DNA of 63,919 nt, counting the filler, from Craspedostauros australis (taxonomy: Eukaryota): assembly GCA_030167865.1 (NCBI GenBank). It is 15 parts of 15 records of this genome, joined end to end, with 100 filler letters (N's around TTAATTAATTAA, not from the genome) between each part and the next. Parts side by side here need not be neighbours in the genome. Positions count along the whole stretch, not along the records: positions 13,434 to 18,758 come from JALAGF010005454.1; 14 more parts are not named here. The stretch is one strand, 5' to 3'. Made by a program: the position numbers and the translations under genes. Shown here piece after piece: positions 85 to 62,660 of the stretch. Within the stretch, counting starts at the first letter, position 1, and every line of letters begins with the position of its first letter. The notes below the pieces were generated by a model. That model did not search any database. It was not told the origin of the DNA and was given only the letters and a program-made list of their open reading frames with translations.

Positions 85-2062
85 GATGAGAATTTGCATG
101 TTGGTAGGTGTTTAAGTATGAATCCGTGATTGACAGTGATTGACAGCCTGCAGCGATATCAACCATGACCATGTTGGTGGCAGTTTCTTGCAAAGGCAAC
201 CAAGGTTGCTGCTTGTGTCAGAGCAGAAATGCACACTGAGAAGACAAGGGCATGCCTCCCAAACTCCATACTCTTTTGTTTCGGACATCAGCCACATCGA
301 TCCTGTTTCCTTCTCCTCTTCCACACATCATCCATGCTTGTGCTCATGACCGCACGAGTCCTTGTACGACCTATTCATGATCGCTGTACATATCTGTACA
401 AGCATCATGTAGAGTTGAGGAAGATTCGGACACCATGTGGACTCTTATGCCATCAATGCATGGAGTAATGGAGTAGCACTAGGTGAGGAGGTGTGAGTAT
501 GAATATTTGCAGGAGCATCTGCATGATTTGAAGGTCCTTGCCATTCGTCTGCCAATCCACACCTTTGCCATTCCACAACCTCAGCAACAAACATGAGAGA
601 TGAAGAAGAAGAGGATTGTTCTTGAGATGTTCTTCGTTCATTGATAAAACGATAATGAAAACGAGGTGAACTTACTGAACGCCGAAGGGTGATCAATCCG
701 TGGTAGTGCAGTAGGTGAACGAGGTTGTTGTTGATTGTGTGTCTTAGTCTTTAAAGCTGTACGAATCCAAATGAGACTTTCAAAAGGATTGTGAGCATGT
801 GATGTGCAGCATCCATTATATTTGGATCTGCAACATCTCTATTAGTAGTAACATAGTGGAGCGTTGAGTCTCCGTACGTGCACTCATCGTGGTGCCGATG
901 TTGCCATTTCCGAGAGGAGACATCAATTTCGTGACGGTCGGAGAGAGAGTTTGTTGTTCACTCTCTTCCGATCAATTTGGGGGAACAAGGTTCATCCAAC
1001 GGTTTGANNNNNNNNNNNNNNNNNNNNNNNNNNNNNNNNNNNNNNNNNNNNNNNNNNNNNNNNNNNNNNNNNNNNNNNNNNNNNNNNNNNNNNNNNNNNN
1101 NNNNNNNNNNNNNNNNNNNNNNNNNNNNNNNNNNNNNNNNNNNNNNNNNNGAGTCACGCTTCAATCCCGCTCAAACTCTGAGCAGTCGGTCATTTGACTA
1201 ACTAGACTAAATCTTAACACGACTAATAGGAATACTAGTTTGAGCTAATATTCATTGAAAGAGCACTATTGCAAAATCACAAGGGGACAGCAAAAGCAAA
1301 GTACCATGCCAAGATTTGAACCTGGAACCTCAGCAAGAATTACTGGTACTCTACCATNNNNNNNNNNNNNNNNNNNNNNNNNNNNNNNNNNNNNNNNNNN
1401 NNNNNNNAAACGATAATGAAAACGAGGTGAACTTACTGAACGCCGAAGGGTGATCAATCCGTGGTAGTGCAGTAGGTGAACGAGGTTGTTGTTGATTGTG
1501 TGTCTTAGTCTTTAAAGCTGTACGAATCCAAATGAGACTTTCAAAAGGATTGTGAGCATGTGATGTGCAGCATCCATTATANNNNNNNNNNNNNNNNNNN
1601 NNNNNNNNNNNNNNNNNNNNNNNNNNNNNNNNNNNNNNNNNNNNNNNNNNNNNNNNNNNNNNNNNNNNNNNNNNNNNNNNNNNNNNNNNNNNNNNNNNNN
1701 NNNNNNNNNNNNTGTTGTTCACTCTCTTCCGATCAATTTGGGGGAACAAGGTTCATCCAACGGTTTGACCCGATTGTCCGTTCAGGACACGTCATGTCAC
1801 GCCCAAAAGTGGCGTGGGATGGCACGATCGATCAAACCCAAATTCGGCGGACACGCGATATCGTCTTAAGTAGAGCACGATTCGAGGGTGGGACCCCATC
1901 CCACCGACATTGAGTCACGCTTCAATCCCGCTCAAACTCTGAGCAGTCGGTCATTTGACTAACTAGACTAAATCTTAACACGACTAATAGGAATACTAGT
2001 TTGAGCTAATATTCATTGAAAGAGCACTATTGCAAAATCACAAGGGGACAGCAAAAGCAAAG

Positions 2063-2131
2063 TACCATGCCAAGATTTGAACCTGGAACCTCAGCAAGAA
2101 TTACTGGTACTCTACCATTGAGCTACAGGCA
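2063..2131 (-). pseudogene. tRNA-like pseudogene / SINE-head-like sequence
   Basis: Minus strand reads TGCCTG-TAGCTCAATGGTAGAGT-ACCAGTAATTCTTGCTG-AGGTT-CCAGGTTCAAATCTTGG-CATGGTA. A-box, B-box and T-arm are present, but the acceptor stem is imperfect and the anticodon loop is non-canonical. A partial duplicate at 1303-1356 is an assembly overlap. Confidence 0.6.
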
Positions 2132-2357
2132 TTGTGATTGCTGAAACGAACACAAGTGAAATTTATAGATAATGGGGGCTATGGAAGTAACATACTTAGC
2201 ACAATGCAGATTTGTGCTGATATTCACAGCATGCCCTTTTGGAAACACGGAACTCGACTTCATGGGAGGGTTGGTTGCCGAGCATGTTGGTCAAAGCACT
2301 GATCAAGTCTGTGGGTGTCATCAAAGCCATGCCAGCACATGCGCGAAAATACACACA

Positions 2358-9034: not shown

Positions 9035-12000
9035 TTGGCGATGTCGGGTTGCGAGTGCTTCATTTGATATAGTAGCATACCTACTCCACTTCGGTATCTG
9101 CTGTGTTGGTCTCTGTCCACCTTGGGCAAATCACTATCCCTTTTGGATGCCTTGCCCTGGTGTTCCTGGTGTACCATACTGTTGCAGCTTCATCATGTTG
9201 TCCTTGAATGTGATGATGACATTCTTGATGATGTGCGGTTGGCTCATCCAGCAGTTCGTCTTGTCGCGGTTGGATACGATCTTGCAGCTGATGTAGTCTT
9301 CCAGATCATCCTCCACCTTGGTACCAAACCGCTCTGCTTTGATGTCTCTCTTGAGTTTCTTCAACTCCTGTTCGTCCTCGATGCATAGGCAGTCGTCGAT
9401 GTAGGTTCCAATCAACAGCAGTCTCCCTTCCTGATTCCGAATCAGAAGGCATGGATCAACTTGGCTTGGTCCGAATCCCAATTTGAGTAGGATGGCGACC
9501 AGCTTCTTCTTGCGTTGTCTTGCCCTTTTCATGAGCCTGTTGATCATCTTCTTGAGCAACAGTCATTCGCTCTCACCATGCTCCACGCCCTTCTGGCAAA
9601 GCATGTAGGCCTCCTCTTTGAGATCTCCATGTAGAAATGCTGTCTCAAGGTTGATAGTGATGCTGTCCAATGTTCAGTAGCATCTTCATTGTGAGCATTC
9701 CGCGGTCGGTTGCGTCATGCATCACGGGTTAGTCCACTCCTGCGATCTGCAAGTATCCGCATGCCACAAGTCTGGTGCAGAACATGCCATTCCTCTTCTC
9801 CTTGAAGACCCACTTGGTCTTCACGCATTGCTGATCCTTCGGCATCTGGTCCTTCTTGACCTTCTGCCAGACTCCTTGTCTGACCATGTCGTAGAATTCC
9901 TTTTTGATGGCATCTCGCCATTTCTTTCGTTTCGCTGGATCCGCATGATCCCAGCATTCTTCGATTGTATTGGGTCCAGCATCATAGTAGTATATGCATG
10001 CTCGGACGTCTTATCCTCTCTCTCACGGTTGCTGAGGCCTGCTCTGTTTCCTCAGCTGATTCACCACCTCCGCTGTTTGAATCTGAGTCGGAGTGGTGTT
10101 CTGGCACGTTGTGGTGTGGTGCCAAGCCACATAGCATCTGTGGCATCCTCGCCACTGGTCTCATGGGAGAGTACTCAAGGCCCTTGCCTTCAGCAGCTTG
10201 CCTCCAAGTCACTTGTGCTTTGTCACTTCCGCTCGTCAGGATCCACATGATCCTATCATTCCTTAGGCGCATATACACTCGGCATCATTCCAGTGTTGAT
10301 GTGCACGAATCTCTCTCGCCGTCGCGTTCGCTCTCAACATCCTGACTCGCAGCGATGAAGTCGATCACTCTCATCCTTCATTGGATAGCACTGATCTTCA
10401 TGCCTGCAATGTGGTTGTTGATGATTGACCTGTTTGTTTCGAAGTTGGGTCCGTCTGTTGCCACTGGAGCAGTCTTCGTCTCCTGTGCAGTTGCGTAGTC
10501 ATCGTCATCTCCTGATTCTGATNNNNNNNNNNNNNNNNNNNNNNNNNNNNNNNNNNNNNNNNNNNNNNNNNNCTGCTCTGTTTCCTCAGCTGATTCACCA
10601 CCTCCGCTGTTTGAATCTGAGTCGGAGTGGTGTTCTGGCACGTTGTGGTGTGGTGCCAAGCCACATAGCATCTGTGGCATCCTCGCCACTGGTCTCATGG
10701 GAGAGTACTCAAGGCCCTTGCCTTCAGCAGCTTGCCTCCAAGTCACTTGTGCTTTGTCACTTCCGCTCGTCAGGATCCACATGATCCTATCATTCCTTAG
10801 GCGCATATACACTCGGCATCATTCCAGTGTTGATGTGCACGAATCTCTCTCGCCGTCGCGTTCGCTCTCAACATCCTGACTCGCAGCGATGAAGTCGATC
10901 ACTCTCATCCNNNNNNNNNNNNNNNNNNNNNNNNNNNNNNNNNNNNNNNNNNNNNNNNNNNNNNNNNNNNNNTCGAAGTTGGGTCCGTCTGTTGCCACTG
11001 GAGCAGTCTTCGTCTCCTGTGCAGTTGCGTAGTCATCGTCATCTCCTGATTCTGATGCTTCGTTCGTCACCCTCATTGGGTGTTGGCATATTGTGATAAG
11101 CTGCCAGCTCTGTCGTCATGTTGCCTTGCAACCATGTTGTCGATCGCCTTCATCCTCTTCTGGATAGCATCGATTCTGTATGCTGCAGCTTCTTCGTCCT
11201 GGGAGTTATTGGCGGCATCCTGCCACTCCTCCTCTATTCATTTGAGGTTCCTCCCTTCCGGCTTTGTCATTGGATTCTTCATCCAACATGCCCGCGTTTC
11301 TCATTGCTCTTGTATTGACGTATCTTGGCTCACTGTATCTGGAATCTGCCCTTCATGGTTCTTGCTCTCATAGCTGTGTCATATCCAGATTTGAAGCTTT
11401 CTCTCTCGTCGATTTCATTCTCATCGCACATCGATCTCAAATCTGTGCTTGTGGTATCTCGCCGATCATTTGGCGTCCGGTTCCTCTTGATCTTCTGCCA
11501 TGCTCATAGTGTGGCCTTTTCACTGAACCGTTCCATCATGGCCTCCCGCCATTCATTGCTCTTCTTGGGATCCATATAACCCCGTCATTCGTCAATTGTG
11601 GTTGGATCCAGCATCATTGCGTCATTTGCTTGCTCAGATCCTTCTTTGTTCTGTATGTAGTTCAATGCTTGGTTCGCAGTGATGAAGTCACCCAGGCTCA
11701 TCCTCTCATGAGTGGTGTCATTCATCATACCTGCGATATCTCTGTTGAATGTTGACCCTTCTGTGTGAAAGTTGGGTCCTCCTGTCGCCGGTAGTGTGGT
11801 AGTCATCTCTTGAGTGGTCTCATACCCAGCATCATCCTTCTGATTCGGATTTTCCACTTGATCCAAGTTCTCGTTCCTCCTTCGGATGGGTGTATTATTG
11901 TACCCCACGAGAGCACTCAGCATCCTCGGCATGCGCGCAACAGGTTCTGCGATTGGGACCGTGTTTGGTTCACCTTCGACCATATCGTATCGTCCCATCT

Positions 12001-13333: not shown

Positions 13334-13433
13334 NNNNNNNNNNNNNNNNNNNNNNNNNNNNNNNNNNNNNNNNNNNNTTAATTAATTAANNNNNNNNNNN
13401 NNNNNNNNNNNNNNNNNNNNNNNNNNNNNNNNN

Positions 13434-13776
13434 CGTTCAGGTCCACGATGACCAGTACTGCCATAATTCTGAAGCTGTGCAATTGAGGACCTCTTATTCA
13501 GATCTATTGGATGAACCAATATATCTGAATTGCAAGGTGTCAACAAGATGGTGTGGAATTGAGGAATCAATATATCTGAATTGCGAGTCAGTCTGTGAGA
13601 CGAGAAAGCGATCCCGCATGGGAGTTGCGGCAATTGCGGATATCAAGACATTACGATTCATCACACACGAAGAGTCTCGTGACTGCATCAGTATTCGTCC
13701 TGTGGTACACGAATACCACACGACTCATTCGAATGCTACCAAGACGAGTGTAGTTGGAGTGCTCGATGTGTTATTA
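13434..13776 (+). repeat. Dispersed repeat E, copy 1
   Basis: Near-identical to 19324-19666 on a different scaffold. Confidence 0.9.
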
Positions 13777-13929
13777 CGTTTTGGCTGATGTGTCATGAAT
13801 GCACGAGTAAGAGTAGGGGTCGAAAACGGTTAATTACAGGTAGACGGATCTCGTCTGCTCGAGGGTTCCCTTCCTCTTGGCTGGTGCTGCTGGCGTGGCA
13901 TCATGGAATAGAATATCGTATAGTATCGT

Positions 13930-15108
13930 TTACACTCTGGCCGCGAGGAATTCCTGGACTGCACCAGCATCGCAGCGGTAAAAGAAGCTGAAGTCCATCA
14001 AGTAGGTGGACAGCAACTGGAGCAGTCCATGGCACATGTAGATTGTGAAAGAGATCTGGACGCTGCGGACCTTGTTATCACCGACTCTCATCTCCTTTGG
14101 AAGTGTTGCGTAGATGAATCCGCAAGCTGGAATGTAGATTAGGGCGTTATAGTTGCCGGCCAGGTGTTGGGCATACACCGACAAGATATCATCTTTGTAC
14201 ATCGGGCATCCTGTCAACTTGAAGCAGAGGCGAAAAAGCCAGCGGATCAACCCCGTGCTGAAAACAGTCGTGTTCAACATGGTCATGTACAGCACATGAA
14301 GGCGGTGCCGGATGTCTGCCTTGGGGAAGCGCTTCTTGTCGTAGATGCATCGGCCGAACCACCAGAACATGCCGATGATAGCAGGTGTGGAGAGCGCAGC
14401 AATCATTGGCAAGGCCATCGCAGACCATTGTAAGATTGTGGGATCCGCCGCTGTATCCGGCCAATGCCCTTGAGCGAGGGCGATGAGCTTGCTTGGGACG
14501 AAAGCACGGCCTGCGTTGACAGACAGCTCGACGATGATGAAGGGCAAATGGATGTTCATGGCAAGCCAACCGAGCGCCTTGTGGAGGCGAATGGATCTGA
14601 AGCAAATCGAGAGGATCATGGCGAAGGAGCAAAGCACCCAGGCGAACATCGACACGAGGTGGACGTTCTCGATGATAAAGCGGTGCGCTTCGTCGGGTGC
14701 AGATCCGGCCCAGCTCAGTTTGTACATCATGAACGCCGCGAAGGGCACCGTGGCGATGGTGCTCGCAAGGAGGTTCGCGTACGCGATGGTTCGGGAGGAT
14801 ACCTGGAATGTGACGTTGTGGTATGTGTATAGCGACACCGCAGTCGCCAATATGGTGCCAACTAGCCACCATGAGGACGACAGGACGGGCACGAACATGC
14901 GCGCGGCAGCCTCTGCCGCTATTGGAGACATAGCGGTTGCCGCGGTCTTCGATGCGTTGGCGAAGGTCCCAGTGTAGTTCATGGTGGCATAGGTGGAGTA
15001 GGTGGAATTCATCCCCTTCTCGATCTCCGAGAAGTACCGCAGGTGGGTTGCATTGAGCATGCCCGATCCGGCATCGTGATAAGTGAATGTGTTTTTGAGT
15101 TGCTCCAT
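13930..15108 (-). CDS. Multi-pass membrane protein of unknown function (possibly DUF2306-like), ~392 aa
   Basis: Intact ORF with about 8 hydrophobic segments and His motifs 'IRLHKALGW' and 'DIRHRLHV'. Likely start is MEQLKN at 15108. Confidence 0.7.
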   Translation of the reverse strand: MEQLKNTFTYHDAGSGMLNATHLRYFSEIEKGMNSTYSTYATMNYTGTFANASKTAATAMSPIAAEAAARMFVPVLSSSWWLVGTILATAVSLYTYHNVTFQVSSRTIAYANLLASTIATVPFAAFMMYKLSWAGSAPDEAHRFIIENVHLVSMFAWVLCSFAMILSICFRSIRLHKALGWLAMNIHLPFIIVELSVNAGRAFVPSKLIALAQGHWPDTAADPTILQWSAMALPMIAALSTPAIIGMFWWFGRCIYDKKRFPKADIRHRLHVLYMTMLNTTVFSTGLIRWLFRLCFKLTGCPMYKDDILSVYAQHLAGNYNALIYIPACGFIYATLPKEMRVGDNKVRSVQISFTIYMCHGLLQLLSTYLMDFSFFYRCDAGAVQEFLAARV

Positions 15109-16887
15109 CGTGGCGTATTCTGTGGAGATGAGAAAGAGAGTGAAGACAGCGAGGAGACGTGAAGTGCGGGCATCAAATGGAAGGTGAGGATTATGACAGC
15201 ATTGTTTTGTAGCAATATTAGCAGTAACATAATAGTAGAATCGCATTATATTATACCAAAGTTGAAGCAATATCAGGAACGAGAATAGATGCCAGGGATC
15301 TTTCGTACTGTCACTTCAATTTTCACTCACATATGTGCTTGCGTTTGGCTATGCCTGTGTCTGCTATGTGTATTAGTATGGTTCGAGATCTTGTTGATGT
15401 AACGTGGTCTAGGTACGAGTCGGTTGACGTTGGGATTGGCTCGAGATTTGCAAATTGTGAGCAATTCATCTCGCTCTTTCTTGCGATGTGGCAAATCGAT
15501 CGGCACCGCCACATTCGCTGGTGCTTTTGACATCGATGCTCTTGGACAACGCACTTTTCCCACGATGGCACCCTGTTTGCAACTATTCGAATCATCAAGT
15601 TTGCGCAGAATTTATCGGATGTCACGAGACAGGAAGAGAGAGAAAGCGGAAGAAGGAGATAGAGAAGGAAGAGTGTAATCAAGAGGCCGGATCTTGATGC
15701 AAAAAGGAAGAGAGTGCGATTATAAATAACTCAATGATATCCATAGGCTGCGATGGAGAATATCGAGGTAGCACTCGTATGAGCGACAAGGAATAGGCGG
15801 CACACGCATGAGTGCGATGTGGAATCAAGCTTTTCGAATGTTGTGCGATGACTGTTTTTCAATTTTCTCCGATTTGGAATTTGCGATCCTGGCATCGCAC
15901 ATCGCACATCGCCAGGACTGCTTTCGGAACAATCTCTCTGTCCCGAACTTTGGGAAATCTGCATACTAGTAGGAATGATCGCTAACATCTATGTCGAAGT
16001 GGGATGATTGTATACGAAACAGGGACAAGTTCGAACTCACAAAGGGGTTTCGACAAAGGGTTTCGACAAAGAGGCGTGCTGTTTGATCCGCACAAGACCA
16101 AAGAGAAGTCGACGGCGATCCCAGTAGTCGCAAGTGTTAGAGGATCGCCGCAGTTGCTAGCGCGATCCATCCAACTACATATATGGAAGTAAGAATGGAG
16201 ACGACCCGACAAGTTGCCCTCGAAGGTGCCTATTCCAAGCGCATTTCACTCTCAATATCGTTCCCCATCGCACGTGCACAACCCGAACCTCGGAATGATC
16301 GCCCCACTCGAAACTTGTGATTCGAAGGTCATTTGATTCTACCTTCAGCGCTCGTCAGGATCGCCTCGCCGATTGGGACGATCGGCGATGATTCGACTGC
16401 CAAGGGATCGTTGAATTTCATGACAGCGGGCGATGAACGCAACGACATCGTTCACTAGCACCATCCTATCATACCACCACCATAGGTAGGTACCATAGGG
16501 GACTGCTCCGAACAATGCAGTTGAACGCACAGCGCGCGTCTGGGAAGGACTGCAAGCGCGATGCTGTGTGGCACCAGCGTCCTCTGATTGGTGCTTTCGG
16601 TTTCGCAGACAATGGGGCGGTAGGCTCGACCCGGTTACGCAAGGACGAAGAGAGCGGTAGGTCTACAGATGGAACGGTACTGTCAATTGTTGCGCAATAT
16701 AGCTCTCCAATACTCTACTATCGCACATTGCATCACTACCGACGAGGTCACACAAATATGTCGACGTGCGTCGCCGTCACTTCGTGCGACGTGTGTGGTC
16801 TGCGCTGATGATCACGACCGGGAAGCGAAGCGGTGCGAAATCGAACAAGAACACAAGAATTATGTTTTGTTTTGCCGTATTTCAAAG

Positions 16888-16895
16888 TATAAAAA
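16888..16895 (+). promoter_or_regulatory. TATA box upstream of the permuted tRNA
   Basis: TATAAAAA lies 30 nt upstream of A16918, the first base of the leader helix of the predicted precursor. Confidence 0.7.
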
Positions 16896-16927
16896 TTCTA
16901 TTTGGAGGCAGCTTTGTAGGAATGGTT

Positions 16928-17005
16928 ATCAGAAGATTCCGGGTTCGAATCCCGGGCAGGTTTGCGGAAGACCTGTTGGCCCAACGGCAAGGCGTCTGAC
17001 TACGA
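16928..17005 (+). tRNA. Circularly permuted tRNA-Arg(ACG): 3' half 16928-16963, 6-nt spacer, 5' half 16970-17005
   Basis: Rejoined halves: GACCTGT TG GCCC AACGGCA AGGC G TCTGA CTACGA|A TCAGA AGATT CCGGG TTCGAAT CCCGG GCAGGTT T. The acceptor stem pairs 7/7 (two G-U), the anticodon and T stems pair 5/5, the anticodon is ACG and the split is at 37/38. Confidence 0.9.
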
Positions 17006-17008
17006 CTC

Positions 17009-17015
17009 TTTTTTT
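17009..17015 (+). terminator. RNA polymerase III oligo-T terminator
   Basis: T7 run starting 4 nt after the end of the tRNA 5' half. Confidence 0.8.
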
Positions 17016-17822
17016 GCTCCAGCAGTGCTCAGTTTCGTTTTTGGTATTGGTGTGCCACGGGAGCTGTGCTGTTGCCTGTTTGCATGTTGCGAAGGCGCAC
17101 AATCATTGACATGGTCCTATACGAACTTATACACTTCAGAGAGTAGGTATGAAACCATTCCGACCATCCGAGGAATTCGTTCCATGCAATTGTTGCATCG
17201 GTCCCCACAAATCATTTCGTTACATCAGCGCGCATAAGGCAACAATGAAAGATGACACTTTCGCTATGACATGAACCCATCTTGGCGTCCCTTGGAAATC
17301 TAGTGTTTTCTGGCACACGAAGAGTACTGCATCCTCCACCCCCACTCTCCCCGATGTAGCTGTGTATCGTCGTCCTACGTATCATACTAGTACTAGTACT
17401 CGTACCGTTGTCTCGTTGATGTGGGCATATCCATGAGGACAGATTCTGTCTGGGGAGACCAAAAATGGCCATTTTGGGCTCAGGAGACAAAGTTACCCGG
17501 AGGTTCGCCAAAATCCGGTCTGAGGAGACAATTTTCAGTTCCACGTGATAAATCTCCACNATAGGATTTTNCGGTCGAATACTTCGACTAAAAGAAACTC
17601 TNCCAGCTCTTCGTTCTGACATCTTCTCCTCCAAGATTTTCTTCATCGTCATTGTTTCTTCGCTTTCCTCCAGATGGCAACAACCCTCTCTCTCCAACCT
17701 CCTTGCCTGCTGTGGTTCATTTCATTCCATCACCAACCTCGCACCTCCTTGCTTGTCATTCGCAGCATCTCCCATACTGCCTTCTCCTTCCAGCTTGCCT
17801 TCTTCGATACGTCACCTTCATC

Positions 17823-18758
17823 ATGGCATCTTCTCTTCCACCTGATTCTCCCAATGCCAATGACAACTTGCCCACAGCTTCCACTCCAGTTGCAACAACC
17901 GGCCATCGCAATGTCTCTCCATCCAAGCAGCTTCATCCCTTTGGACAAGTTTTGGATGATGGAATGGGTGATGCAGGCAAGCACACCCATGAAGAAGAAG
18001 GAGATGGCATCTGTGTCAACAGTGATGACAAGGGTGTGGTGCCAACATTGGTGCTTCGAAATCCGGTTGGTGATTTTGGAGTCCAACCGTGCTCACTTCC
18101 TGGTTACAGCTATCGCAGCGTCCTCCCTCCCAAGAAGGGGAGTAGGGAGATCTCTGTGGAGTGGAAGGTGCTCTCGGCCTACGAGCATGCAACAAAAGTG
18201 ACTGTTGGAGAAGCCCACAAGCTTGCTCTCCTCCATGCAAAGGAAGAGACTCGTTCACTGTGAGCAGCTGTCTTGCAACGCTTCCCCAAGACTCCTCCTG
18301 GGTCTCCACCATACGTGCCAACACCCCACGACTTGATCCAAGATGTGCTGGGCCCCACATCTCCCATTTTCATCTGTGCATTTGGCCCAAATGGGCTGGT
18401 TTTCTCATATGCTGAGTACATGGAGTTCCTCTATGCCATCACATCACAGATGGTGGAAGGCTGCACCATTCGTCGGCTCTATGATGGCGGCAACGCTGCC
18501 ACGCTTCCCAGCTTTCCCACCAGACAGCAGTACGTCAATCTCTGGGATCGTATTCGACGCAATGGAAACTCTGTCTCTCGGAATGGCCATCGCTTTGTTT
18601 GGACCGAATTCGAAAGGGCTTTCAACATGACGCTTGAGATTCTTTGTCTTCGTCATCGTTGCCCGAATCGGATCGTCACATTGGATGATGACAAGGTTCA
18701 TTTCAGCAGCCGTGCAGAGACCAGCTATCTGCTTGGCATGAGACATACTCATGCAAAT
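17823..18758 (+). pseudogene. Possible piggyBac-like transposase N-terminal fragment
   Basis: One reading frame with a single TGA at 18261. Ends in 'WTEFERAFN...IVTLDDDKVHF', resembling the first catalytic-Asp region of piggyBac-type DDD enzymes. Truncated by the scaffold end. Confidence 0.4.
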
Positions 18759-19323
18759 NNNNNNNNNNNNNNNNNNNNNNNNNNNNNNNNNNNNNNNNNN
18801 NNTTAATTAATTAANNNNNNNNNNNNNNNNNNNNNNNNNNNNNNNNNNNNNNNNNNNNTCAACGAGTTTCTGAATGGTTGTGTTCAGAGTAGAGCATGGA
18901 TTGCCACACACAAGAAACCAACGCTCTTCCTCGTTGCCAACAACGCGAGTACGCCACGTATCAAAGTGCTCAATTTTTGGCATTATCGTCCGTATTTGAT
19001 AGAACAGAATACAATAATAGGGTACTTACTCCAAATAAAGATTGATCAGATCCGACAATGAAGTATGTAGATTGTATTGTAATTTGTTGTGCTCAAGTAA
19101 TTTGATTGTAATGTTATCGAAGAAAGCTGGCCCAATTCTGATCTGTTGAAGTCAGAATTGTGAGCATGAAGAGTGCAATGCAAGATGATGATGATGATGA
19201 AATGAGATTGCACAAGTTGCACACAGCAATACTGCTGTAAAATGATGCCTTGCACTGTTGTATTCACATGTGGGAGGACATGTATGTTTGCAAGCACAGA
19301 GGTGAAGACAAGATCAGATGGCA

Positions 19324-31518: not shown

Positions 31519-32776
31519 NNNNNNNNNNNNNNNNNNNNNNNNNNNNNNNNNNNNNNNNNNNNTTAATTAATTAANNNNNNNNNNNNNNNNNNNNNNNNNN
31601 NNNNNNNNNNNNNNNNNNTAATTGACTGGTTGATACAGCCGACCCATACGACTCCAGGGCATCATCCGCAGGAAGAAGACGGGACACACAGCGGGAATGC
31701 AAGCCATGTGCATCACCCCGCAATGGAGACCCAAACTTAACGGTTATAACGGCCACACTAGGGCCACATCCCTAAGTAAGGACAATTCGAACCATGTGCG
31801 ACAACGGCCATTTGATGGCAATGCGGAGCTCACAAAATGATCGCCCGCGGCGACAAAATCGACACACAAACAAAAACTCAAAAACACGGAATGCGCTATC
31901 GATGACACCAATTGCAAACCCATCAGAGAAGATGCAATCGGATAGTGAAGCCGGACCAAGACCCGCTTCGAGCAAATGAGAAACGAAGGAGGTCGAACAC
32001 GAGGAGATTGAGGAGCCTGCAAGAGAAAGGAGAAAGAGAGAAGAGAAACAACAAGCAGAGAAGCGATGCGACAAGCAACAACCGAAACGCGCACAATTTG
32101 GAAAATACGAAAGAATTGTCACACTCCTCGCTTCGGATAACGCTTCCTGCAACGCTTGCTCAGGGGTAACCTAGCAACAACACAACGCCTTCTACACCAC
32201 TTCACGCCTTTCACCTTCTTCTTGAGTCCTCACCATGACCGACCCACCCAATCTCTCCTCGCTTCNNNNNNNNNNNNNNNNNNNNNNNNNNNNNNNNNNN
32301 NNNNNNNNNNNNNNNAAGTAAGGACAATTCGAACCATGTGCGACAACGGCCATTTGATGGCAATGCGGAGCTCACAAAATGATCGCCCGCGGCGACAAAA
32401 TCGACACACAAACAAAAACTCAAAAACACGGAATGCGCTATCGATGACACCAATTGCAAACCCATCAGAGAAGATGCAATCGGATAGTGAAGCCGGACCA
32501 AGACCCGCTTCGAGCAAATGAGAAACGAAGGAGGTCGAACACGAGGAGATTGAGGAGCCTGCAAGAGAAAGGAGAAAGAGAGAAGAGAAACAACAAGCAG
32601 AGAAGCGATGCGACAAGCAACAACCGAAACGCGCACAATTTGGAAAANACGANAGAATTGTCACACTCCTCGCTTCGGATAACGCTTCCNGCAACGCTTG
32701 CTCAGGGGTAACCTAGCAACAANACAACGCCTTCTACACCACTTCACGCCTTTCACCTTCTTCTTGAGTCCTCACC

Positions 32777-35050
32777 ATGACCGACCCACCCAATCTCTCC
32801 TCGCTTCTTGCGTCCGAGGCCTCCGCTTTCGCCAGTATGCCTCCGGCTGTGTCCGGGCCCGGGATCGCAGTCGAGACTGTATCCCCGGTAGCCAGCGGAT
32901 CCGCCCACTCTGGTGATATGGGCAGCGACACTCTCCTCGACCAAGTCGGGATCGGGATGGCCATCGGACATGTCGTGGCTGACGACCGCATCTGCCTGGT
33001 CCGCCTCTCCTCCAAGTCGGAGGACGGCCACACTCTACTCTGTGCTAACTTGGCCAGCGAGTGCCGCCGCAGCAACCACCATGCCCTTCGTCGCGACCCT
33101 GACCGCCGTGGACTCTCGGGAGTGTACCAATGCCTCGACACAACCACGCTTGGCGGAGCACCCCGACGCGATCTCATCGAGAGCAGCCACCAGAGCCGCG
33201 CCGCATACGACTCTACTCGTGCCGCCGCGCTCCGCGATCTCGAGGCTGTCGGCAAGATGGATATCACGGATGCCGCTGCCCGCAACGACAGCGACTCCAA
33301 AAGCGTCGGGGTGGTCGGATTCGACCTCGACACCAAGCCAGCAGGACGACCCGGCATCGATGTACAGCCGACGCCACCTGTCCGCATCAAGACCAACCCC
33401 GCTGGCCCACCACCGACCACCCAGCCAGTGGCATCCGGTCGCACACCCCCGGCCCCATTGATGCGCCCCGTCCCGGTCGTCTCCCGTCCGGTCCTCTCCT
33501 CCCAGCACGGAACACACTACTCTCCTCCTGCTCTGGCCACCACCGCAGCCGACGAACTCATGCATGTGGTGCGTCATCAGGCATCCCTCAACCGTGAAGC
33601 GATGGAGCTCCACCAACGCAAGTCAGAGGAGACCACACAAGCAATGTTGCGTGCACTGACGAATCAGCAGGCGCAAATCACGCAACTGCTCCAACAGGGC
33701 CGTCCCTCCCCGAGTCTCGCTCCCGCACCTGCCCCAACCACGGACACTGAATGGTATGTGGCGATCGATGGACGACGCCCCGGGGTATACACCTCGGCGG
33801 CCGAGGCCATCGCTCAAGCAGGCACCGGAAGCACCGCCCGAGTTCTTCGGTGTGCTTCCTTCGCCGAAGCCGATGCCTACCTCCGTGCTTCAGCGACAAC
33901 CGCGCCCACCTACAGCCAGCCGACGTCACACGACCGTCCACACCCGGCAGGAGCGACACGCCCGGGAAACACACCCGCCGAGTCCCAAGCGGCGACGGCC
34001 TCTCTTCCAGATCGGGCCCCATCTGGCTCCACCAGTATGGGCATCGAACAGTTCCTGGGCGAAGACTCGTCCAAGGGCGACAAGAAACAGATCTTCGGCG
34101 AAGCCATCGACAACGAACAACGCATGCTCAAACACCTTGCCCCGCCACACGCAAGCCAAGAGATCCAGACTGAACTCGCTAAAGCCGCCATCGACGTCAC
34201 CAGCCAACCAGGTAAGGTCACTGATGAACGCACATCCATCGAAGAACTCGCCTCCGCCTTCGGAGACATCCGCAACCAAACCGCTCGATCTGCCGGTCTC
34301 ATCGCCGCCGACTCCAACTGGCGCACCAAGACTCGCCACGCTCTCGGCCGCATCAAGACCTCCAAAGACCTCAGCGAACTCGCGGGTGACTTCAACAGCA
34401 TCCGCGACGACGTGATGACCCGCTATCTCAATGATGTGGGTCACATTCTCCGCCACGGCTGCTACACCGATGAGCAAATCATTCTCTACCAGCAAGGCAG
34501 AGGATGGGTCGCCGTCCTCAAGCTGTTCTTGACCTACTACCATGAACTCCTCCTCAAACTCCAAGAGGAAGCCTTCAAGACAGCCAACGGATGGGAGGAC
34601 TCAGCCGAGGTGTACCTCGAACACTACGCCAAGGCTCTCTTCGACGCACGCAACTTCGCGTCCTCCCGCAATCTCATGATCTTTCGCACATACATCATCG
34701 TACGCGAAGGAGCACGAGGCGGATGGTGCAACCTGAAGGTCCTGGAGAAATTCCAGCAGCGCGCAATCGGCACCCTCGGCCAATCCTCGGCAACGAAGGA
34801 TGACACTGACACCGCTCCAACCAAAACAGGTCGGAAGAAGTGCAAGCACTGCGGAGGATCCAGCAAGGTCCATGAGATCCGCGACAGCGGATGCCCGTTC
34901 GGGTATCTCTTCAAGAAGAAGGTGGCGATGGCGAAAGCCAAACAGGTCGCGAAATGTGTGAACCAAGGCGAGAAAGCCGCCGACGTTATCACCCGCATCC
35001 TGCAGGAAGCAATTGCGAAGCGCGGAGGCGGAGAAGAGGATGATGCCTAA
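32777..35050 (+). CDS. 757-aa protein with RNase H1 N-terminal/caulimovirus viroplasmin-like domain and two Cys/His clusters; probable retroelement ORF1/Gag-like
   Basis: Intact ORF. 'WYVAIDGRRPGVYTSAAEA...CASFAEADAYL' at 33752-33886. N-terminal C..C..C..H cluster and C-terminal CKHC...H...C. Confidence 0.7.
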   Translation: MTDPPNLSSLLASEASAFASMPPAVSGPGIAVETVSPVASGSAHSGDMGSDTLLDQVGIGMAIGHVVADDRICLVRLSSKSEDGHTLLCANLASECRRSNHHALRRDPDRRGLSGVYQCLDTTTLGGAPRRDLIESSHQSRAAYDSTRAAALRDLEAVGKMDITDAAARNDSDSKSVGVVGFDLDTKPAGRPGIDVQPTPPVRIKTNPAGPPPTTQPVASGRTPPAPLMRPVPVVSRPVLSSQHGTHYSPPALATTAADELMHVVRHQASLNREAMELHQRKSEETTQAMLRALTNQQAQITQLLQQGRPSPSLAPAPAPTTDTEWYVAIDGRRPGVYTSAAEAIAQAGTGSTARVLRCASFAEADAYLRASATTAPTYSQPTSHDRPHPAGATRPGNTPAESQAATASLPDRAPSGSTSMGIEQFLGEDSSKGDKKQIFGEAIDNEQRMLKHLAPPHASQEIQTELAKAAIDVTSQPGKVTDERTSIEELASAFGDIRNQTARSAGLIAADSNWRTKTRHALGRIKTSKDLSELAGDFNSIRDDVMTRYLNDVGHILRHGCYTDEQIILYQQGRGWVAVLKLFLTYYHELLLKLQEEAFKTANGWEDSAEVYLEHYAKALFDARNFASSRNLMIFRTYIIVREGARGGWCNLKVLEKFQQRAIGTLGQSSATKDDTDTAPTKTGRKKCKHCGGSSKVHEIRDSGCPFGYLFKKKVAMAKAKQVAKCVNQGEKAADVITRILQEAIAKRGGGEEDDA

Positions 35051-49791: not shown

Positions 49792-51316
49792 NNNNNNNNN
49801 NNNNNNNNNNNNNNNNNNNNNNNNNNNNNNNNNNNTTAATTAATTAANNNNNNNNNNNNNNNNNNNNNNNNNNNNNNNNNNNNNNNNNNNNCATAACTAT
49901 GGCATTGCATGAACTGACCATCATGATTGGCCGGTTGGGTCGTGGCGTTATGTCAAAGTTCTTATTTGGTGGGAATGCAATGATGTCTGCGACAGGTCAC
50001 GAAGACACCGATGTCCACAACACGAGGGGAGTTCTCACGTTTCCTGTTAAACAAATATCGATTGCGTACTTGTGAGCACAAATATAATGTCAAATAGAAA
50101 ATCGATGTTTCGTGATTTTGTCATTGCGTCGTTCTTCGCATGTTGCACAGTGTTCTATTTCGTCTGTGGAACTGAAGGACGGTTTGGACTTACGGAACAG
50201 AGCGTGACGTCACGTTAAGAATTAACCTTCCGACCATTCGGACAAGTGAAAGCACACGAACCAACTCTTGCACAGTGTTTCAACGACAGAAACGCGGAGG
50301 CATGGCGCCAGACAAGCAGTCTAAATGTGGAGATGCTGTCCTCTGTTTGTATGGTACGTTTCATAATGTATCTACACACATTAGTATACCAATTCTTGAT
50401 GGTACTCCGATGGGTACCGAAGGTCAACAAGGATGCGTCAGACCAGGGTGGGAGGCGACTGGGTAAATGGTCTCCCGCAGCTCCCAAAGTTGGGCACTAC
50501 GACACGGCGTCGAACCGATGACAAAAACGATAAGTTGCAATCATTTCGGAACGGAGGAATACGTAACAATAGAGAATTCTCGCAGCCCGATTTCGGAGTC
50601 CCGCGGAGGAATCATAACCAGATAGAGACATTTTGTGTGGGGTCGCCCCAAAAAACGAAATCGGAATCCGGTTTCAAATGGGCTCTCGGAACCGGGATAA
50701 TCAATTCTTCCCGATTTCGTCGAGTCCCGCGAAAAGGTCTTTCAAGTTTAGATCTTTCGTAACTGACCAATCACATGCTTCTTTCGTTGCAGAGTGTGTT
50801 CTTCTGTCCAGAAGTAAGTTTCCTTGTGACAACCTCCTCGTTTCTCTTCTGTTGGCGGAGAGATCTGGAACGTGTGTTTTTTCTCTATCGTGTGAAGCTG
50901 TGTTCGTTGCCTGCTAAACACATGCTCCCTGCGAATCTCCACGCAACACAGGAATACTCCTTTTCTCAACGCATCGTGGCCATGTGCACGGTGTTGCGCC
51001 ATACTTCCGGTTCTTCGCCTCTTCCGCCACCCACTGCGTTGGTCACTGAATCGCATGCCATGTNNNNNNNNNNNNNNNNNNNNNNNNNNNNNNNNNNNNN
51101 NNNNNNNNNNNNNGCCATGTTCCAACGCATCCGTTGCATCGTCCTTTGTTTCCAACACGACTACTCCTTCTCAGTCGCATCAAATGCAACTATCCAACGT
51201 ATCCGTTTCATCGTCTTTCCCTGACAGCACGACGACTCCTTCTCCATTGAATCAAATGCAATCATTCACTGCATTGCTCCATGCCAACCCGATTGTTTCT
51301 ATGATTCAAGTCACAC

Positions 51317-52603
51317 ATGCTCCAACTCATCCCGTCGCGTAACTTCACCATGGTCAAGATTCCAACCTCTTCTTCATCGATTCCAACGTCCACCTCTTCT
51401 GACAAAGATGAGAATGCGGAAATCGTAAACCAGCCTCCATCGCCCCCTCCCATTCGATGCGGCAATGGTGTTGCTGCTGTGCAAGATGTATCCAACATCA
51501 CCGCTACGGCCTTCCTCAAACCTGCCCCAACCAACTCTCATGAAGCAACCGTTGCACCATCATCTCCAGAGGCCATCTCTACTCCTTGCCGCATTGTCAC
51601 TCCCAGCAACAACACCAGGACTGTCAAAGTTCAACGCAATCCTCGTCTCATCTACATCACCAAACATGGTCGCTACCCCTGGTTCCAAGACCCCAAGGTG
51701 GCCGATGTCATCTTCATCGACCACATCATGTCATTGGAGCCAAAGCCATGGGAGAAGCGTGTCAGTGAATCCTGGGAGGCTGTTGCTAAGCACCTGGAGA
51801 AGACTTACCCAGATTTGTTCAAGCCCTTTCCNGTGGAAGCAAGCAACTCCAAGCCCAAGATGAACAGATACCAGTACCGCTTCGANTCTCTGATGCAGAT
51901 GGTGGTCAAGTTCAACAAGTTNGCCCCACATCGCAGTGGGCAAGACAATGAGCCATGCACTCCTCATTTGAAGAAGCTTTCAGTGTTGCAGGAGCACCAC
52001 AGCTCCTTGAAGCTCAACAAGAAGAAGGCAGCGGCTCGTGCCAAGCTGGGAGAAGAAGCAGCTGAGGAAATGCAGCTTGCTATGCTCAACCGCCGAAAGA
52101 AAGCAACACCGCGCCAGCCTCCAGCTGACAACGACCAGAAGCAGGCTGCTGTGGGACAGCCTACGAAGAAGCAGAAGCAACAAGATGTGTGGGATGCAAC
52201 AAAGCAAACCACAGCATTGGTTGAGAAGCTGATGGAGTCGCGTGCAGCCCTCCTTGCACGCATGGACAATCCTTCACCCACGGCCGCAACTACCAATGGT
52301 GCAGCCCCAGATATCAGCAGCAGCATTTCCGAACTCATTCGTTTGCAGCGAGCTGCAGAGGAGCGCCAGGAGGCAAGAGCAGCCGTGGAGGCAGAGGAAA
52401 GGCGGCAGCTTCGTCTTCATCAACAGTATCAGATGGCGGAATCGCGTCGCCTCGAGGATCATCGGTTGGCCGAGTCTCGCCTCTTCGAACAGGAGCGCTC
52501 CCATCGACAGGCCGCGCTCAACACAAGCATCGAATCCATGATGCAAATGCTGGCGAGATTCCTCCAGGACAAGACTGAACGTCGTGACCACTCCACAGAA
52601 TGA
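51317..52603 (+). CDS. Myb/SANT(trihelix)-like protein with C-terminal coiled coil, probable Harbinger/PIF accessory protein
   Basis: 428-aa ORF with 'SESWEAVAKHL...YQYRF.SL...RSGQDNE' and an E/R/Q-rich coiled-coil tail. Confidence 0.55.
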   Translation: MLQLIPSRNFTMVKIPTSSSSIPTSTSSDKDENAEIVNQPPSPPPIRCGNGVAAVQDVSNITATAFLKPAPTNSHEATVAPSSPEAISTPCRIVTPSNNTRTVKVQRNPRLIYITKHGRYPWFQDPKVADVIFIDHIMSLEPKPWEKRVSESWEAVAKHLEKTYPDLFKPFXVEASNSKPKMNRYQYRFXSLMQMVVKFNKXAPHRSGQDNEPCTPHLKKLSVLQEHHSSLKLNKKKAAARAKLGEEAAEEMQLAMLNRRKKATPRQPPADNDQKQAAVGQPTKKQKQQDVWDATKQTTALVEKLMESRAALLARMDNPSPTAATTNGAAPDISSSISELIRLQRAAEERQEARAAVEAEERRQLRLHQQYQMAESRRLEDHRLAESRLFEQERSHRQAALNTSIESMMQMLARFLQDKTERRDHSTE

Positions 52604-56677: not shown

Positions 56678-59600
56678 ATGAGCGAGGAAGAGGAATTGAA
56701 AGACATCCCTCTGTCCAATCTGGCTATCAAGCAAGAAGAAGGTGCGAGTGAGACTTGATCACGACAAGAGAAGGAAGTAGCTGAGGCTACTGTCCTATCA
56801 GGCACAGAGGCAAGCACAATCAACGAGACCGAAGAGGAACAGTCTACAAGACTACACCGCGAGGAGAAGAGCATTCTCAAGGCGATCAAGCAAGAGGAGA
56901 CTGGTGTGACGAAGAGCATTCGCACAGCCAAACAGGGTGTGAAAAGTGAGACACCATCTGGAGGAGAATTTGTGACGAAAAATGTCTCCGCGCAACAACA
57001 GGCGAAAATCGAGGAATCGGCAACACAGAAACAGACGGAAATCAAGGGCACGAGCGCACCAACGACGAAACGACAAGACAAAATGGCGACATCAGCCAAC
57101 ACGAACAAGTGGCGCATCAAAGCGCCGATGTTCAGCGGTGAACAAGAGGATTATAGCGCATGGGAGTCCCAAGCAAAAGCATACGCTCGTACACAGAAGA
57201 CGAGAGACGTGATGTTGGGCAAGACAAAGATTCCAACAGTGAGTGAGATCGCAGCAGCCACCGACGAAATCAAGGAGGCAATGGAGGAAACCTACGAGCT
57301 GGCAGGCAACTGCTTCAGCGATCTGATCCTCATGATGGACACAGAGAAGGGAAAGGGCAAGCAGGCCATCCAATACATCAATCAATGCATCTCCGACGAT
57401 TACCCTGATGGGAATCCACACGCAGCGTGGAACGTTCTCGCGGAGAAGTTCCGGCCATCCGATGCGGTGACGAAGATCAAACTCAAGCGTCAATTCAACA
57501 ACGAAAAGATGAAGAAAGACTCAGACCCCGACGTATACATCACGCGACTCGAGATACTGTGCTCCCGTCTCCACGATGTCGGATACACGATCACGGACGA
57601 GGAAATGATCATGCAAATCCTCAGTACGGTGAGCGTGGAATACAGAACACACGTCGTGAGTTGCAACCACCAACTCACGTTCAATCCGACAGTGGTCACC
57701 ATCAACACAATCAGAGGAGTACTCCGTGAAGCACATACCACGCATCAAGGCGGAAAGGTATACATCGACGATTTCCAAGACAGCAATACGAAGAGCAATG
57801 ACGCCGGCTTCACAAGCACTGGTAACTTCAAGGGCACCTGCCACAACTGTGGTGTGTATGGTCACAGATCCACCGATTGCCCAGAACGCAAGAAATCGAA
57901 CAACAAGAAAAACAACAACAACAACAACAAGATGAACGGAAAGCGTAACAACAACCGCAACAAGGGAAGCAGCTTCAACGGGAAGTGCAACTACTGTGGC
58001 ATCTTCGGACATCGCGAGGCGGAGTGCCGAAAGAAGAAGCTCAACAAGAACAAGAAGACCAACGAACAAGCCAACACGGCAACGGAAGGACACGACAAGA
58101 GCGGGCACGAGATGGTACTCTTAGCAAAGGACATGCCGCTCTGCATGTTGGTGTCCGACGACTACATCGAAGACTCCTTCTTCGATAACTTCGAGTGCGT
58201 CGGGAGTGACAACGAAGTGGTGGACGATGAAATTGTCCCGGAGTGGCTCAGTAAAGAGCCCATCATCCGCGAGGTGGATCCAAGACGCGAAGTGAGCTAC
58301 GAATGCTGCTTCAACGCAAACGACCTGATCGGTCCATACAGCGACAGAGCTGAGATGGGCAACGAGGCCATCGATAGCGACATCGAGGAGGCCATGAGTG
58401 AAGAAGATGACGACGAACCCAACAAGAATGACAGAGGCCGAGACGAAACGAACAGCGGCGCGGCGCCGGCTCCTCCGGCGGCGGGGAACAACAGATCGGG
58501 TATCTTCGACGAAGACGACAGTGATGAAACAGAAGATCATCCAGACGACAGCTTCAACCCAAACGAGCGTGTCGTCTACCCAGGGAACATCGACTTCCCA
58601 CCAATCGAGGATCACAACGACTCCAACTACCTCCATCGTCATGATACCGTCCCATATGCAACAGAGACAGCATTGATAATCCAAAAGCAACTCATCTTCG
58701 ATACCGTAATGGAAGCAGGAGTGAAGATGTACCCAGGAGTCGCACAAGGAGTGCTCAGACCAATATGGGTGAACATGATGGGATCCATCCTATCGGAGAA
58801 CTTCAGATCCATCGAAGAGATTCTCGCCAATTCGGTCGTCATCAACCGCATATTGGAAGCGGATGACACAGAGACGATTCCAGAGACGGATCTCCATTAC
58901 ATCCTTGGAGGGTGCATGCGTGTACTCCTGCGCGAGCGACCACGCGTCAACCCATACGATCCAGCCACAGGATCACATCGGAACAATACGATTCCATCGG
59001 ACGACGCACAACTACCTGACAACATGGACGACGAGGAACATCATAATCCATACAACGAAGATGGAGTTCACGAAGACGACGATGACGGCAGCTTCGACGA
59101 CGAGATAGCTGCGGCAGCCGTGGAGCAGCTCCACGAGCTGAGTACCAAACACAAAGACAAGGTCAACAAGGACACCTGGCTCGCCAACAGTGGAGCTTCG
59201 TGTCACATCGTCAATTCGGACGCTGCTCTCTTCAACGTGCGGCACATCAAGTCCTTCGTCCAAGTGGGAGACAGCACGAAGCTGGATTCTCCCAAAATGG
59301 GATCCATTCGCTTGAAGGTCAAGCAACGAGACAACACTGGCCACATCATCCGGCTCGATGACGTGAAGTACACACCNAANATGGCGGTGAACCTTTTCTC
59401 NNCNAACAAGGCTCTGTACAACGGTTACCAGCTTGGTAACAACGGCATTCTGATGGACATCATCAACGGATCCGGAATGAAGATCGTGTTCGATCGAGTC
59501 TTCCCCACATCGAACGGATTCATCACGGGAGTGCAAATGCATCCCATCATGCCAACAGACGACGATAAGGCTTGCACAGCCATCATCAAGAATCCATCCA

Positions 59601-62484: not shown

Positions 62485-62660
62485 NNNNNNNNNNNNNNNN
62501 NNNNNNNNNNNNNNNNNNNNNNNNNNNNTTAATTAATTAANNNNNNNNNNNNNNNNNNNNNNNNNNNNNNNNNNNNNNNNNNNNGTTGACATTGTTGGTT
62601 TTCGCTTCATTTTGATAATTCAAGGAGGCGCAAGAGCTCACAATTCGCAACAATACAAAC

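Follow-up and report, generated by a model that had tools for sequence, protein, structure and literature searches.

Does the DNA at positions 16888-17015 (+) of a 63,919-nt stretch from the assembly GCA_030167865.1, deposited under the name Craspedostauros australis, hold a transfer RNA gene whose two halves stand in reversed order, and does such a gene work? The whole stretch is referred to below as the window. An earlier note on its sequence had proposed at this place a permuted tRNA-Arg(ACG) gene with its own promoter, junction motif and terminator. By every feature examined in the DNA, the locus is a type II permuted tRNA gene, and it is very likely a nuclear gene, circularly permuted and functional, that encodes cytosolic tRNA-Arg(ACG); it is broken at positions 37/38 and very probably belongs to a diatom.

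A reversed tRNA-Arg(ACG) gene and its relatives

The tRNA's 3' half (positions 38-73) comes first and occupies 36 nt at 16928-16963 (+), running from A38 through the 3' anticodon-stem strand, variable loop, T arm and 3' acceptor-stem strand to the discriminator base U73. It is followed by a 6-nt intervening sequence, GCGGAA (16964-16969, +), which forms the loop closing the acceptor stem and is not CCA, and then by the 5' half (positions 1-37), another 36 nt at 16970-17005 (+) with the 5' acceptor-stem strand, U8, a D arm carrying C20, the 5' anticodon-stem strand and the bases C32 U33 A34 C35 G36 A37. Both halves are supported by rejoining and by a family model described below, and the order and coordinates proposed earlier, with GCGGAA between the two segments, were borne out on the sequence. 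When the 5' and 3' halves were sliced from the window, the second segment placed first and the product given to ARAGORN, it was called as a 72-nt tRNA-Arg(acg) with a regular cloverleaf, consisting of an acceptor stem of 7 bp (two of them G.U), a D stem of 3 bp, an anticodon stem of 5 bp and a T stem of 5 bp. The halves had been said to complement each other exactly once, and in the rejoined molecule no position is indeed doubled or missing, except for position 17, which is absent from many tRNAs. All 20 base pairs of the body are intact in the window copy, and the consensus bases U8, A14, G18 G19, A21, U33, U54 U55 C56 and A58 are present together with the A15:U48 pair. The CCA end is not encoded at this locus, where U73 is followed by GCG.

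In genomic order the gene escapes the common tools, as had been anticipated. ARAGORN, run with or without introns, calls no tRNA across the whole window, Rfam at its gathering thresholds gives no match in the window, and a permissive Rfam search of 301 nt around the locus returns no tRNA. Neither half has a second copy in the 64-kb window, exact matches being confined to the locus itself, and a contiguous anticodon arm of tRNA-Arg(ACG) was found neither in the window nor in the 29 metagenome loci introduced next.

Relatives were sought in metagenome contigs with one single pattern, consisting of the first 12 bases of the 3' half, 40-70 bases of any kind, and the closing 11 bases of the 5' half, ending at G36. 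The permuted order alone can satisfy this pattern. The scan yielded 32 copies on 29 contigs with 17 record prefixes; with the window the copies number 33, of which 29 are distinct (28 environmental ones and the window), the exact duplicates being L009, L016, L028 and L025; L017, L027, L029, L006 and L022 represent the more divergent copies. The family counts given from here on refer to these 29 distinct copies, window included. Between the anchors, a T arm and a 7-bp acceptor hairpin occur in every copy, so that all copies are permuted units, and the 28 distinct environmental copies thus share the order of the window gene. Since the 12-nt and 11-nt anchors are invariant by construction, the anticodon stem is uninformative in this comparison.

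The remaining stems are another matter. The acceptor, T and D stems are fully (100%) paired in all 29 copies, and the acceptor stem does so in seven versions, each with 7/7 pairs. Two-sided changes were observed at pair 50:64 (CG in 23 copies, UA in 4, GC in 2), at pair 2:71 (UA in 23, AU in 4, GC in 2), at pair 5:68 (four pair types) and at pair 12:23 (CG in 27, GC in 2). The observed covariation score was reached by none of 500 shuffles, and the true structure pairs 87.7% of cells as against 47% when the partners are slid by one column. Meanwhile the linkers between the halves, 4-20 nt long, are unrelated in sequence, and the anticodon ACG lies in a 7-nt loop formed by both halves in 29/29 copies. 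A covariance model built from the 28 environmental copies, with the window excluded, has one match in the 63.9-kb window, namely 16914-17016 (+), full length, with 109 bits and an E value of 3e-35. As the model was made without the window, this match indicates that the window gene belongs to a family selected for a working tRNA fold; on this comparison, chance is excluded as the source of its structure.

A scan for a T arm joined to an acceptor hairpin disclosed no other permuted tRNAs in the 29 loci. Within about 600 nt on each side, 26 of the 29 contigs carry a single unit. Tandem pairs of permuted units are present on the other three, L015 (521 nt apart), L017 (178 nt) and L027 (128 nt), as the tandem-duplication model of how permuted genes arose would lead one to expect. 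In L017, for example, ARAGORN with introns reads across the pair as a tRNA-Arg(acg) with a 100-nt intron. Related units with 20-nt intervening sequences were noted at L003:601-691 and L026:601-691; each linker contains a perfect palindrome of 12 nt, the two differing at the centre only, so that the acceptor loop seems to retain a small hairpin.

Transcription signals and the 37/38 junction

A TATA box, TATAAAAA, lies at 16888-16895 (+) and presumably serves as a TFIIIB-dependent promoter for RNA polymerase III (Pol III). It starts 40 nt before A38, which is the spacing preferred by the family: a TATA start at -44 to -35 relative to A38 was found in 17 of the 29 copies, compared with 4.8% of random positions in the same DNA. 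At the other end, a run of seven T's (T7; 17009-17015, +), a putative Pol III terminator, begins 4 nt after A37, behind CUC. A run of at least four T's starting no more than 25 nt after G36 occurs in 27/29 copies versus 18.3% at random, and one of the two copies devoid of it (L011) ends at the contig edge. Both signals claimed for the locus are therefore present, and their positions recur across the family. No copy (0/29) has four T's between the leader and position 37. Sixteen copies have TTT at positions 71-73, and in none of them (0/16) is the next base T, even though T makes up 21% of the linker bases. The lack of internal T4 and the TTT that is never extended are as expected from selection if Pol III must cross the linker and stop after the 5' half.

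The precursor would begin with a leader at 16916-16927 (+), whose 5' end is deduced, and end with a trailer at 17006-17015 (+). In the leader, 16918-16921 provide one strand of an outer helix, 16922-16925 stand opposite C35-C32, and 16926-16927 contribute two bases to the bulge of the 3' site; in the trailer, C17006 is the third base of the bulge at the predicted 5' cut site, and 17007-17010 form the other strand of the outer helix. The strict, archaeal-type bulge-helix-bulge (BHB) motif, hBHBh', has two 3-nt bulges with a 4-bp helix between them and flanking helices no shorter than 2 bp. In the strict register C32-C35 face leader positions -3 to -6, the bulges consist of 36, 37 and +1 and of -2, -1 and 38, and the outer helix starts where leader -7 meets trailer +2. 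The geometry of the window is exact in this respect, yet its central helix, made up of C32-G16925, U33.G16924 and A34-U16923, contains one G.U pair and the C35.A16922 mismatch. The bulges are 3 nt each, 16926-16928 (UU|A) and 17004-17006 (GA|C), and 16918-16921 pair with 17007-17010 in an outer helix of 4 bp, one of them G.U. The window copy, in which three of the four central pairs form and the outer helix reaches 4 bp, is the best strict fit among the 29. The pairs, bulges and outer helix of the BHB-like motif had all been described in the earlier note and stand; its statement that T7 follows the helix does not, as T7 overlaps the last two helix bases, 17009-17010.

In 29/29 copies of the family the leader offers C32 a possible G partner, at -3 or -4, as compared with 36% of random leaders. 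The partner is at -3 in 18 copies and at -4 in the other 11, where it heads a perfect 4-bp GURG block. This block (leader columns 8-11 of the family alignment) is the perfect complement of C32-C35, placed one base farther from A38 than the strict motif. U33 is paired in 25/29 copies, and the leader -7 : trailer +2 pair forms in 25/29 with six pair types. A composite junction motif is present in 23/29 copies versus 2.3% at random. When the whole family is read in the register shifted by one base, the fit is perfect in 11 copies, and the outer helix is paired in 42.6% of cells as against 65.2% in the strict register. The invariable pairing of C32 with a leader G and the covarying outer helix argue for selection on a junction structure of the kind that the eukaryotic endonuclease reads. 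As far as the DNA tells, the junction is of a relaxed, eukaryote-type form, in which position 32 is paired and the 3' site beside the anticodon stem is bulged. Of the BHB pairing expected to be kept in relatives, the C32 pair and the outer helix are conserved, and the central pairs of A34 and C35 in the strict register are poorly kept.

Several observations have to be set against a functional gene with a BHB-like junction. The strict register pairs A34 in just 5 and C35 in 8 of the 29 copies, the C32 pair is shifted one base outwards in 11 copies so that a 4-nt bulge results, and the central helix of the window itself contains the C.A mismatch. The predicted precursor is not exceptionally stable either: its minimum free energy is -31.8 kcal/mol (z -1.04), a value equalled or bettered by 35 of 200 shuffles, and the cloverleaf combined with the strict BHB comes to -24.7 kcal/mol, 7.1 above the minimum. 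Three stems (acceptor, T and anticodon) and the outer helix survive in the fold of lowest energy, in which the leader pairs with A34-A37 differently. Furthermore, the window has A37, which it shares with a minority of the family (6/29 copies, window included), and lacks the GURG block that 11 relatives have 3 nt before A38, its own GUAG being situated at 16916-16919, 8 nt before A38. Set beside these points, the comparison of 29 copies, with their shared order, stems, TATA box, T-run and C32 pair, still lends strong support to the functional permuted gene that the earlier note had put forward.

Proposed maturation and competing explanations

From the anatomy of the gene, its conservation and its covariation, the RNA steps can be inferred as follows. 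Pol III would be placed by the TATA box at -40 and would probably start about 10-12 nt before A38, transcribing the 3' half, GCGGAA and the 5' half as one RNA and stopping in the T7 run. The halves are predicted to form the usual tRNA body, with the 6-nt loop closing its acceptor stem. Leader and trailer would pair with C32-C35 and with each other, bringing the 37|trailer and leader|38 bonds into BHB-like bulges, where the tRNA-splicing endonuclease could cut both. The site between 37 and 38 is the sole one normally cut by eukaryotic enzymes (PMC3978253), and with the junction at this place the ordinary eukaryotic endonuclease should suffice. A tRNA ligase, for which Trl1-type homologues have been reported in diatoms (PMC4090602), would then join A37 to A38 to give a circle of 78 nt, from which RNase P and tRNase Z would excise GCGGAA before CCA is added. 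Finally, A34 may be deaminated to inosine by ADAT2/3, as in other eukaryotes (PMC8007984). A pathway of this kind is established in Cyanidioschyzon and supported for prasinophytes, and circular intermediates have been shown for permuted genes of red and green algae (PMC3978253).

The most serious competitor is a silent or decaying paralogue, with the working gene or genes elsewhere in the genome. The A37 of the window, where 23/29 copies have G37, its C.A mismatch and its different leader would fit such a history, as would the repeat-rich surroundings with Copia elements and no conserved genes. On the other hand, all the body pairs are intact, the locus scores at full length against a model made from other copies, a TATA box at the preferred distance and T7 are in place, the strict junction is the best of the family, and A37 recurs in five other copies on three contigs, so that decay appears improbable. 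Even less credit can be given to a tandem array of ordinary intron-containing tRNA-Arg genes, in which the 5' half at 16970-17005 would be spliced over a long intron to another 3' half downstream of it and the upstream 3' half would be a leftover. Permuted genes are proposed to have originated by tandem duplication (PMC3978253), three environmental contigs do carry two permuted units 128 to 521 nt apart, and in L017 ARAGORN with introns reads 5' half, spacer and the next 3' half as a gene. In the window, however, there is no second copy of a half and ARAGORN with introns is blank, and T7 would stop Pol III 4 nt after A37; in the family, most contigs (26/29) are single-unit over the roughly 600 nt available on each side, and each tandem unit has a T-run of its own.

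It is about equally doubtful, that is, very unlikely, that the halves are used and not joined through a circle, be it as a nicked two-piece tRNA cut at the linker or by some other joining route. The strict BHB lying above the fold of lowest energy and its poorly kept central helix would agree with this; the C32-leader G pair in every copy, the covarying outer helix, a junction exactly at 37/38 and the circular intermediates known from red and green algal permuted genes (PMC3978253) all point the other way. A tRNA-like RNA that does not decode, similar to the Y-RNA-type module YrlA (RF02553), deserves mention because YrlA was the best permissive Rfam match (16915-17021, 23 bits, E 0.009) and likewise places a T arm, an acceptor-like stem and a D arm, in this order, inside a closing stem. 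Yet the score is far below the gathering score of 69, and YrlA is bacterial and lacks an anticodon loop, whereas the locus keeps a 7-nt ACG loop through 29 copies and a 7-bp acceptor stem with a discriminator base, which leaves this explanation with a negligible probability. The same minute chance is given to the idea that an assembly error exchanged the two halves of what is a normal gene. The sequence is indeed joined from contigs, with 14 artificial spacers and many gaps, but the locus is inside one uninterrupted piece (13434-18758) with the spacer 3.5 kb away, the same order is found in 28 distinct environmental copies under 17 data-set prefixes, and the flanks carry matching promoter, junction and terminator signals. 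A functional permuted gene processed through a circle accordingly remains the reading that we prefer.

Host, comparison with known systems and other features of the window

The tRNA itself points to the host. Position 20 is C in 5 copies (window included) and U in 24, which accounts for 29/29. According to PMC8975779, nuclear tRNA-Arg of diatoms carry C20 and/or U20, stated to be "without exception", with Table 2 of the same paper adding A for two species; A20 is kept in the green, red, haptophyte, pelagophyte, brown and other algae surveyed there, and non-A20 tRNA-Arg is common to fungi too, hence the trait is not exclusive to diatoms. Neighbouring genes on two groups of contigs are in agreement with this assignment. 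The CRAL/TRIO gene beside the L018 unit shares 80% identity with a Chaetoceros transcript, and its first eight organism-named matches are all diatoms (the others from Attheya, Trieres, Eucampia, Grammatophora, Nitzschia, Cylindrotheca and Nitzschia sp.), with oomycetes next at 54%. For the TLC-domain gene beside L002/L016/L028, the best representative (52% identity) falls in a 90% cluster with a Chaetoceros tenuissimus protein and another representative is from Nitzschia inconspicua, these two being the sole organism-named clusters among the ten looked up. The window itself offers its Copia polyprotein, whose closest relatives are environmental proteins of 45-50% identity, the sole protist-named one coming from Skeletonema dohrnii; among its nearest Atlas clusters three are labelled Bacillariophyta and the others are fungal, oomycete and plant. 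Among the open reading frames (ORFs) of the window no conserved cellular gene was found: the 8 long ones give Pfam domains of Copia only, and 150 of the 178 ORFs of at least 90 aa (the other 28 lying mostly in the Copia region beyond 50 kb) gave two RVT_2 fragments and nothing else in Pfam. In short, the diatom host guessed earlier fits three lines of evidence, all indirect, namely the C20/U20 bases, the diatom-like neighbours and the Copia relatives; we regard the window as probably a diatom scaffold, and hold with somewhat greater confidence that the family as a whole is at home in diatoms.

The closest known parallels to the window gene are the type II genes of the prasinophytes Ostreococcus and Micromonas and of the nucleomorph of Bigelowiella natans (Maruyama et al. 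2010, listed in Table 1 of PMC3978253), in which the 3' half is also upstream and the junction is at 37/38. They likewise have a relaxed eukaryote-type junction beside the anticodon stem, an AT-rich or TATA region upstream and a T-stretch downstream (PMC3978253). Their intervening sequences measure 5-64 bp, compared with 6 bp in the window and 4-20 bp in its family, and permuted genes overall have 1-74 bp (PMC3978253). The isoacceptor is different, since there is no Arg(ACG) among the 34 genes of that table and arginine is represented only by Arg(TCT) of O. tauri and Arg(CCT) of C. merolae. The host differs as well, C20/U20 and the neighbouring genes of the window family pointing to diatoms and not to green algae, and, as a further difference, the TATA box of the family is sharply phased at about -40.

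The genes of Cyanidioschyzon merolae resemble that of the window in having a TATA-like element no more than 50 bp upstream, a T-stretch downstream and an intervening sequence free of signals (PMC3978253). In that alga the pathway through a circular intermediate has been shown experimentally. The junctions of C. merolae are located at 20/21, 37/38, 50/51 and 59/60, some with introns, in contrast to the window family with 37/38 only and no introns (PMC3978253); that alga has unusual endonuclease requirements, and for the window gene an ordinary 37/38 cut would suffice. In Auxenochlorella (Trebouxiophyceae) the halves are reversed as in the window, and the genes were found by way of an incomplete tRNAscan-SE set; it is a green alga, unlike the diatom-like host considered here (PMC12636532). 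Ordinary tRNA genes with an intron at 37/38 have the same cut sites and a pair between position 32 and the base three nt before the 3' cut, and they use the same endonuclease and ligase that are presumed for the window gene. In these genes the exons follow one another normally and the loop that is thrown away is the intron, whereas in the window the exon ends are the transcript ends, so that ligation would close a circle and the acceptor end would be opened afterwards.

Permuted genes have been described from a few very small algae of the red and green lineages, a single nucleomorph and a single archaeon, amounting to 34 genes in the table of 2014, which includes no stramenopile (PMC3978253). 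Later additions comprise further chlorarachniophyte nucleomorphs and, in 2025, permuted tRNA genes of Auxenochlorella (PMC12636532). The relevant passages of a 2026 review of tRNA genes in photosynthetic eukaryotes attribute permuted genes to red algae, green algae and the nucleomorph of B. natans only, and mention diatoms for their low gene number only. We found no report of permuted tRNAs in stramenopiles in the literature searched; among the papers listed, a stramenopile name stood beside "permuted tRNA" only in one on organellar 5S rRNA. The earlier statement that no stramenopile case is established holds within this body of open-access texts, taken apart from their supplements; subscription papers, Maruyama 2010 among them, were outside its reach.

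This gene is of more than routine interest on account of the group that hosts it, of how important its tRNA is and of how broadly it is conserved. A tRNA-Arg(ICG) reads CGU, CGC and CGA. We tentatively raise the possibility, leaning slightly towards doubt, that diatoms make their cytosolic tRNA-Arg(ICG) solely from permuted genes, the permutation having arisen once before the sampled lineages diverged and having been obligatory ever since. If this were true, stramenopiles would have their first permuted tRNA system, which would also be the first in the host nucleus of a red-plastid lineage, and the reading would explain why standard annotation misses tRNA-Arg(ACG) in diatom genomes. If the finding holds, the annotation of Arg(ACG) in diatoms is probably incomplete, because ARAGORN and Rfam miss every single copy, as tRNAscan-type tools probably do too. 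With a conserved and widespread permuted gene for a major arginine tRNA, diatoms would bring the phenomenon into a group that ranks among the main primary producers of the ocean, and would offer a natural, apparently ancient substrate on which to study the handling of circular precursors by a eukaryotic splicing endonuclease and ligase, by RNase P and by tRNase Z; genetically tractable diatoms could be used for such a study if they carry the permuted gene. The 29 natural variants of the junction would show what the enzyme tolerates, and the two registers, with 3-nt and 4-nt bulges, hint at a splicing endonuclease looser than that of yeast.

As for the rest of the window, the scan for a T arm and acceptor hairpin gave, beyond the locus, two tRNA-like repeat copies and no other permuted tRNAs. 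These two copies, with a gap of 77 nt and 6/7 pairs, were judged chance matches and rejected as permuted tRNAs. They lie at 1979-2135 (-) and 1218-1357 (-), each starting with the tRNA-like sequence, which at 2068-2127 (-) reaches 28.5 bits with the Rfam tRNA model, under the gathering score of 29, and is not called by ARAGORN. Its anticodon loop measures 9 nt, and a matching acceptor stem is lacking. The two copies share about 110 identical nt downstream, the second copy meets an assembly gap, and the element may be a tRNA-derived repeat or pseudogene.

The 14 artificial spacers of 100 bases are of the form N44-TTAATTAATTAA-N44 (for example 13334-13433 and 18759-18858) and place stops in all six frames; gaps of 50 N's, gaps of odd length and single N's are also present, and the long-range order is only as good as the joining. 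Three long ORFs fall into no Pfam family: 13933-15315 (-), 461 aa; 32768-35047 (+), 760 aa; and 51305-52600 (+), 432 aa. A word-based search for the 461-aa product, which looks like a multi-pass membrane protein, gave no homologue among 5.8 billion proteins, and the 760-aa product has no Atlas neighbour above 0.75. A Copia-type long terminal repeat retroelement extends over 56906-62540 (+) in two overlapping long ORFs interrupted by assembly gaps, with the domains gag, zinc knuckle and Pol beta-barrel followed by SH3-like and RVT_2, and degenerate RVT_2 fragments of a second Copia-type element are located at 9137-10010 (-).

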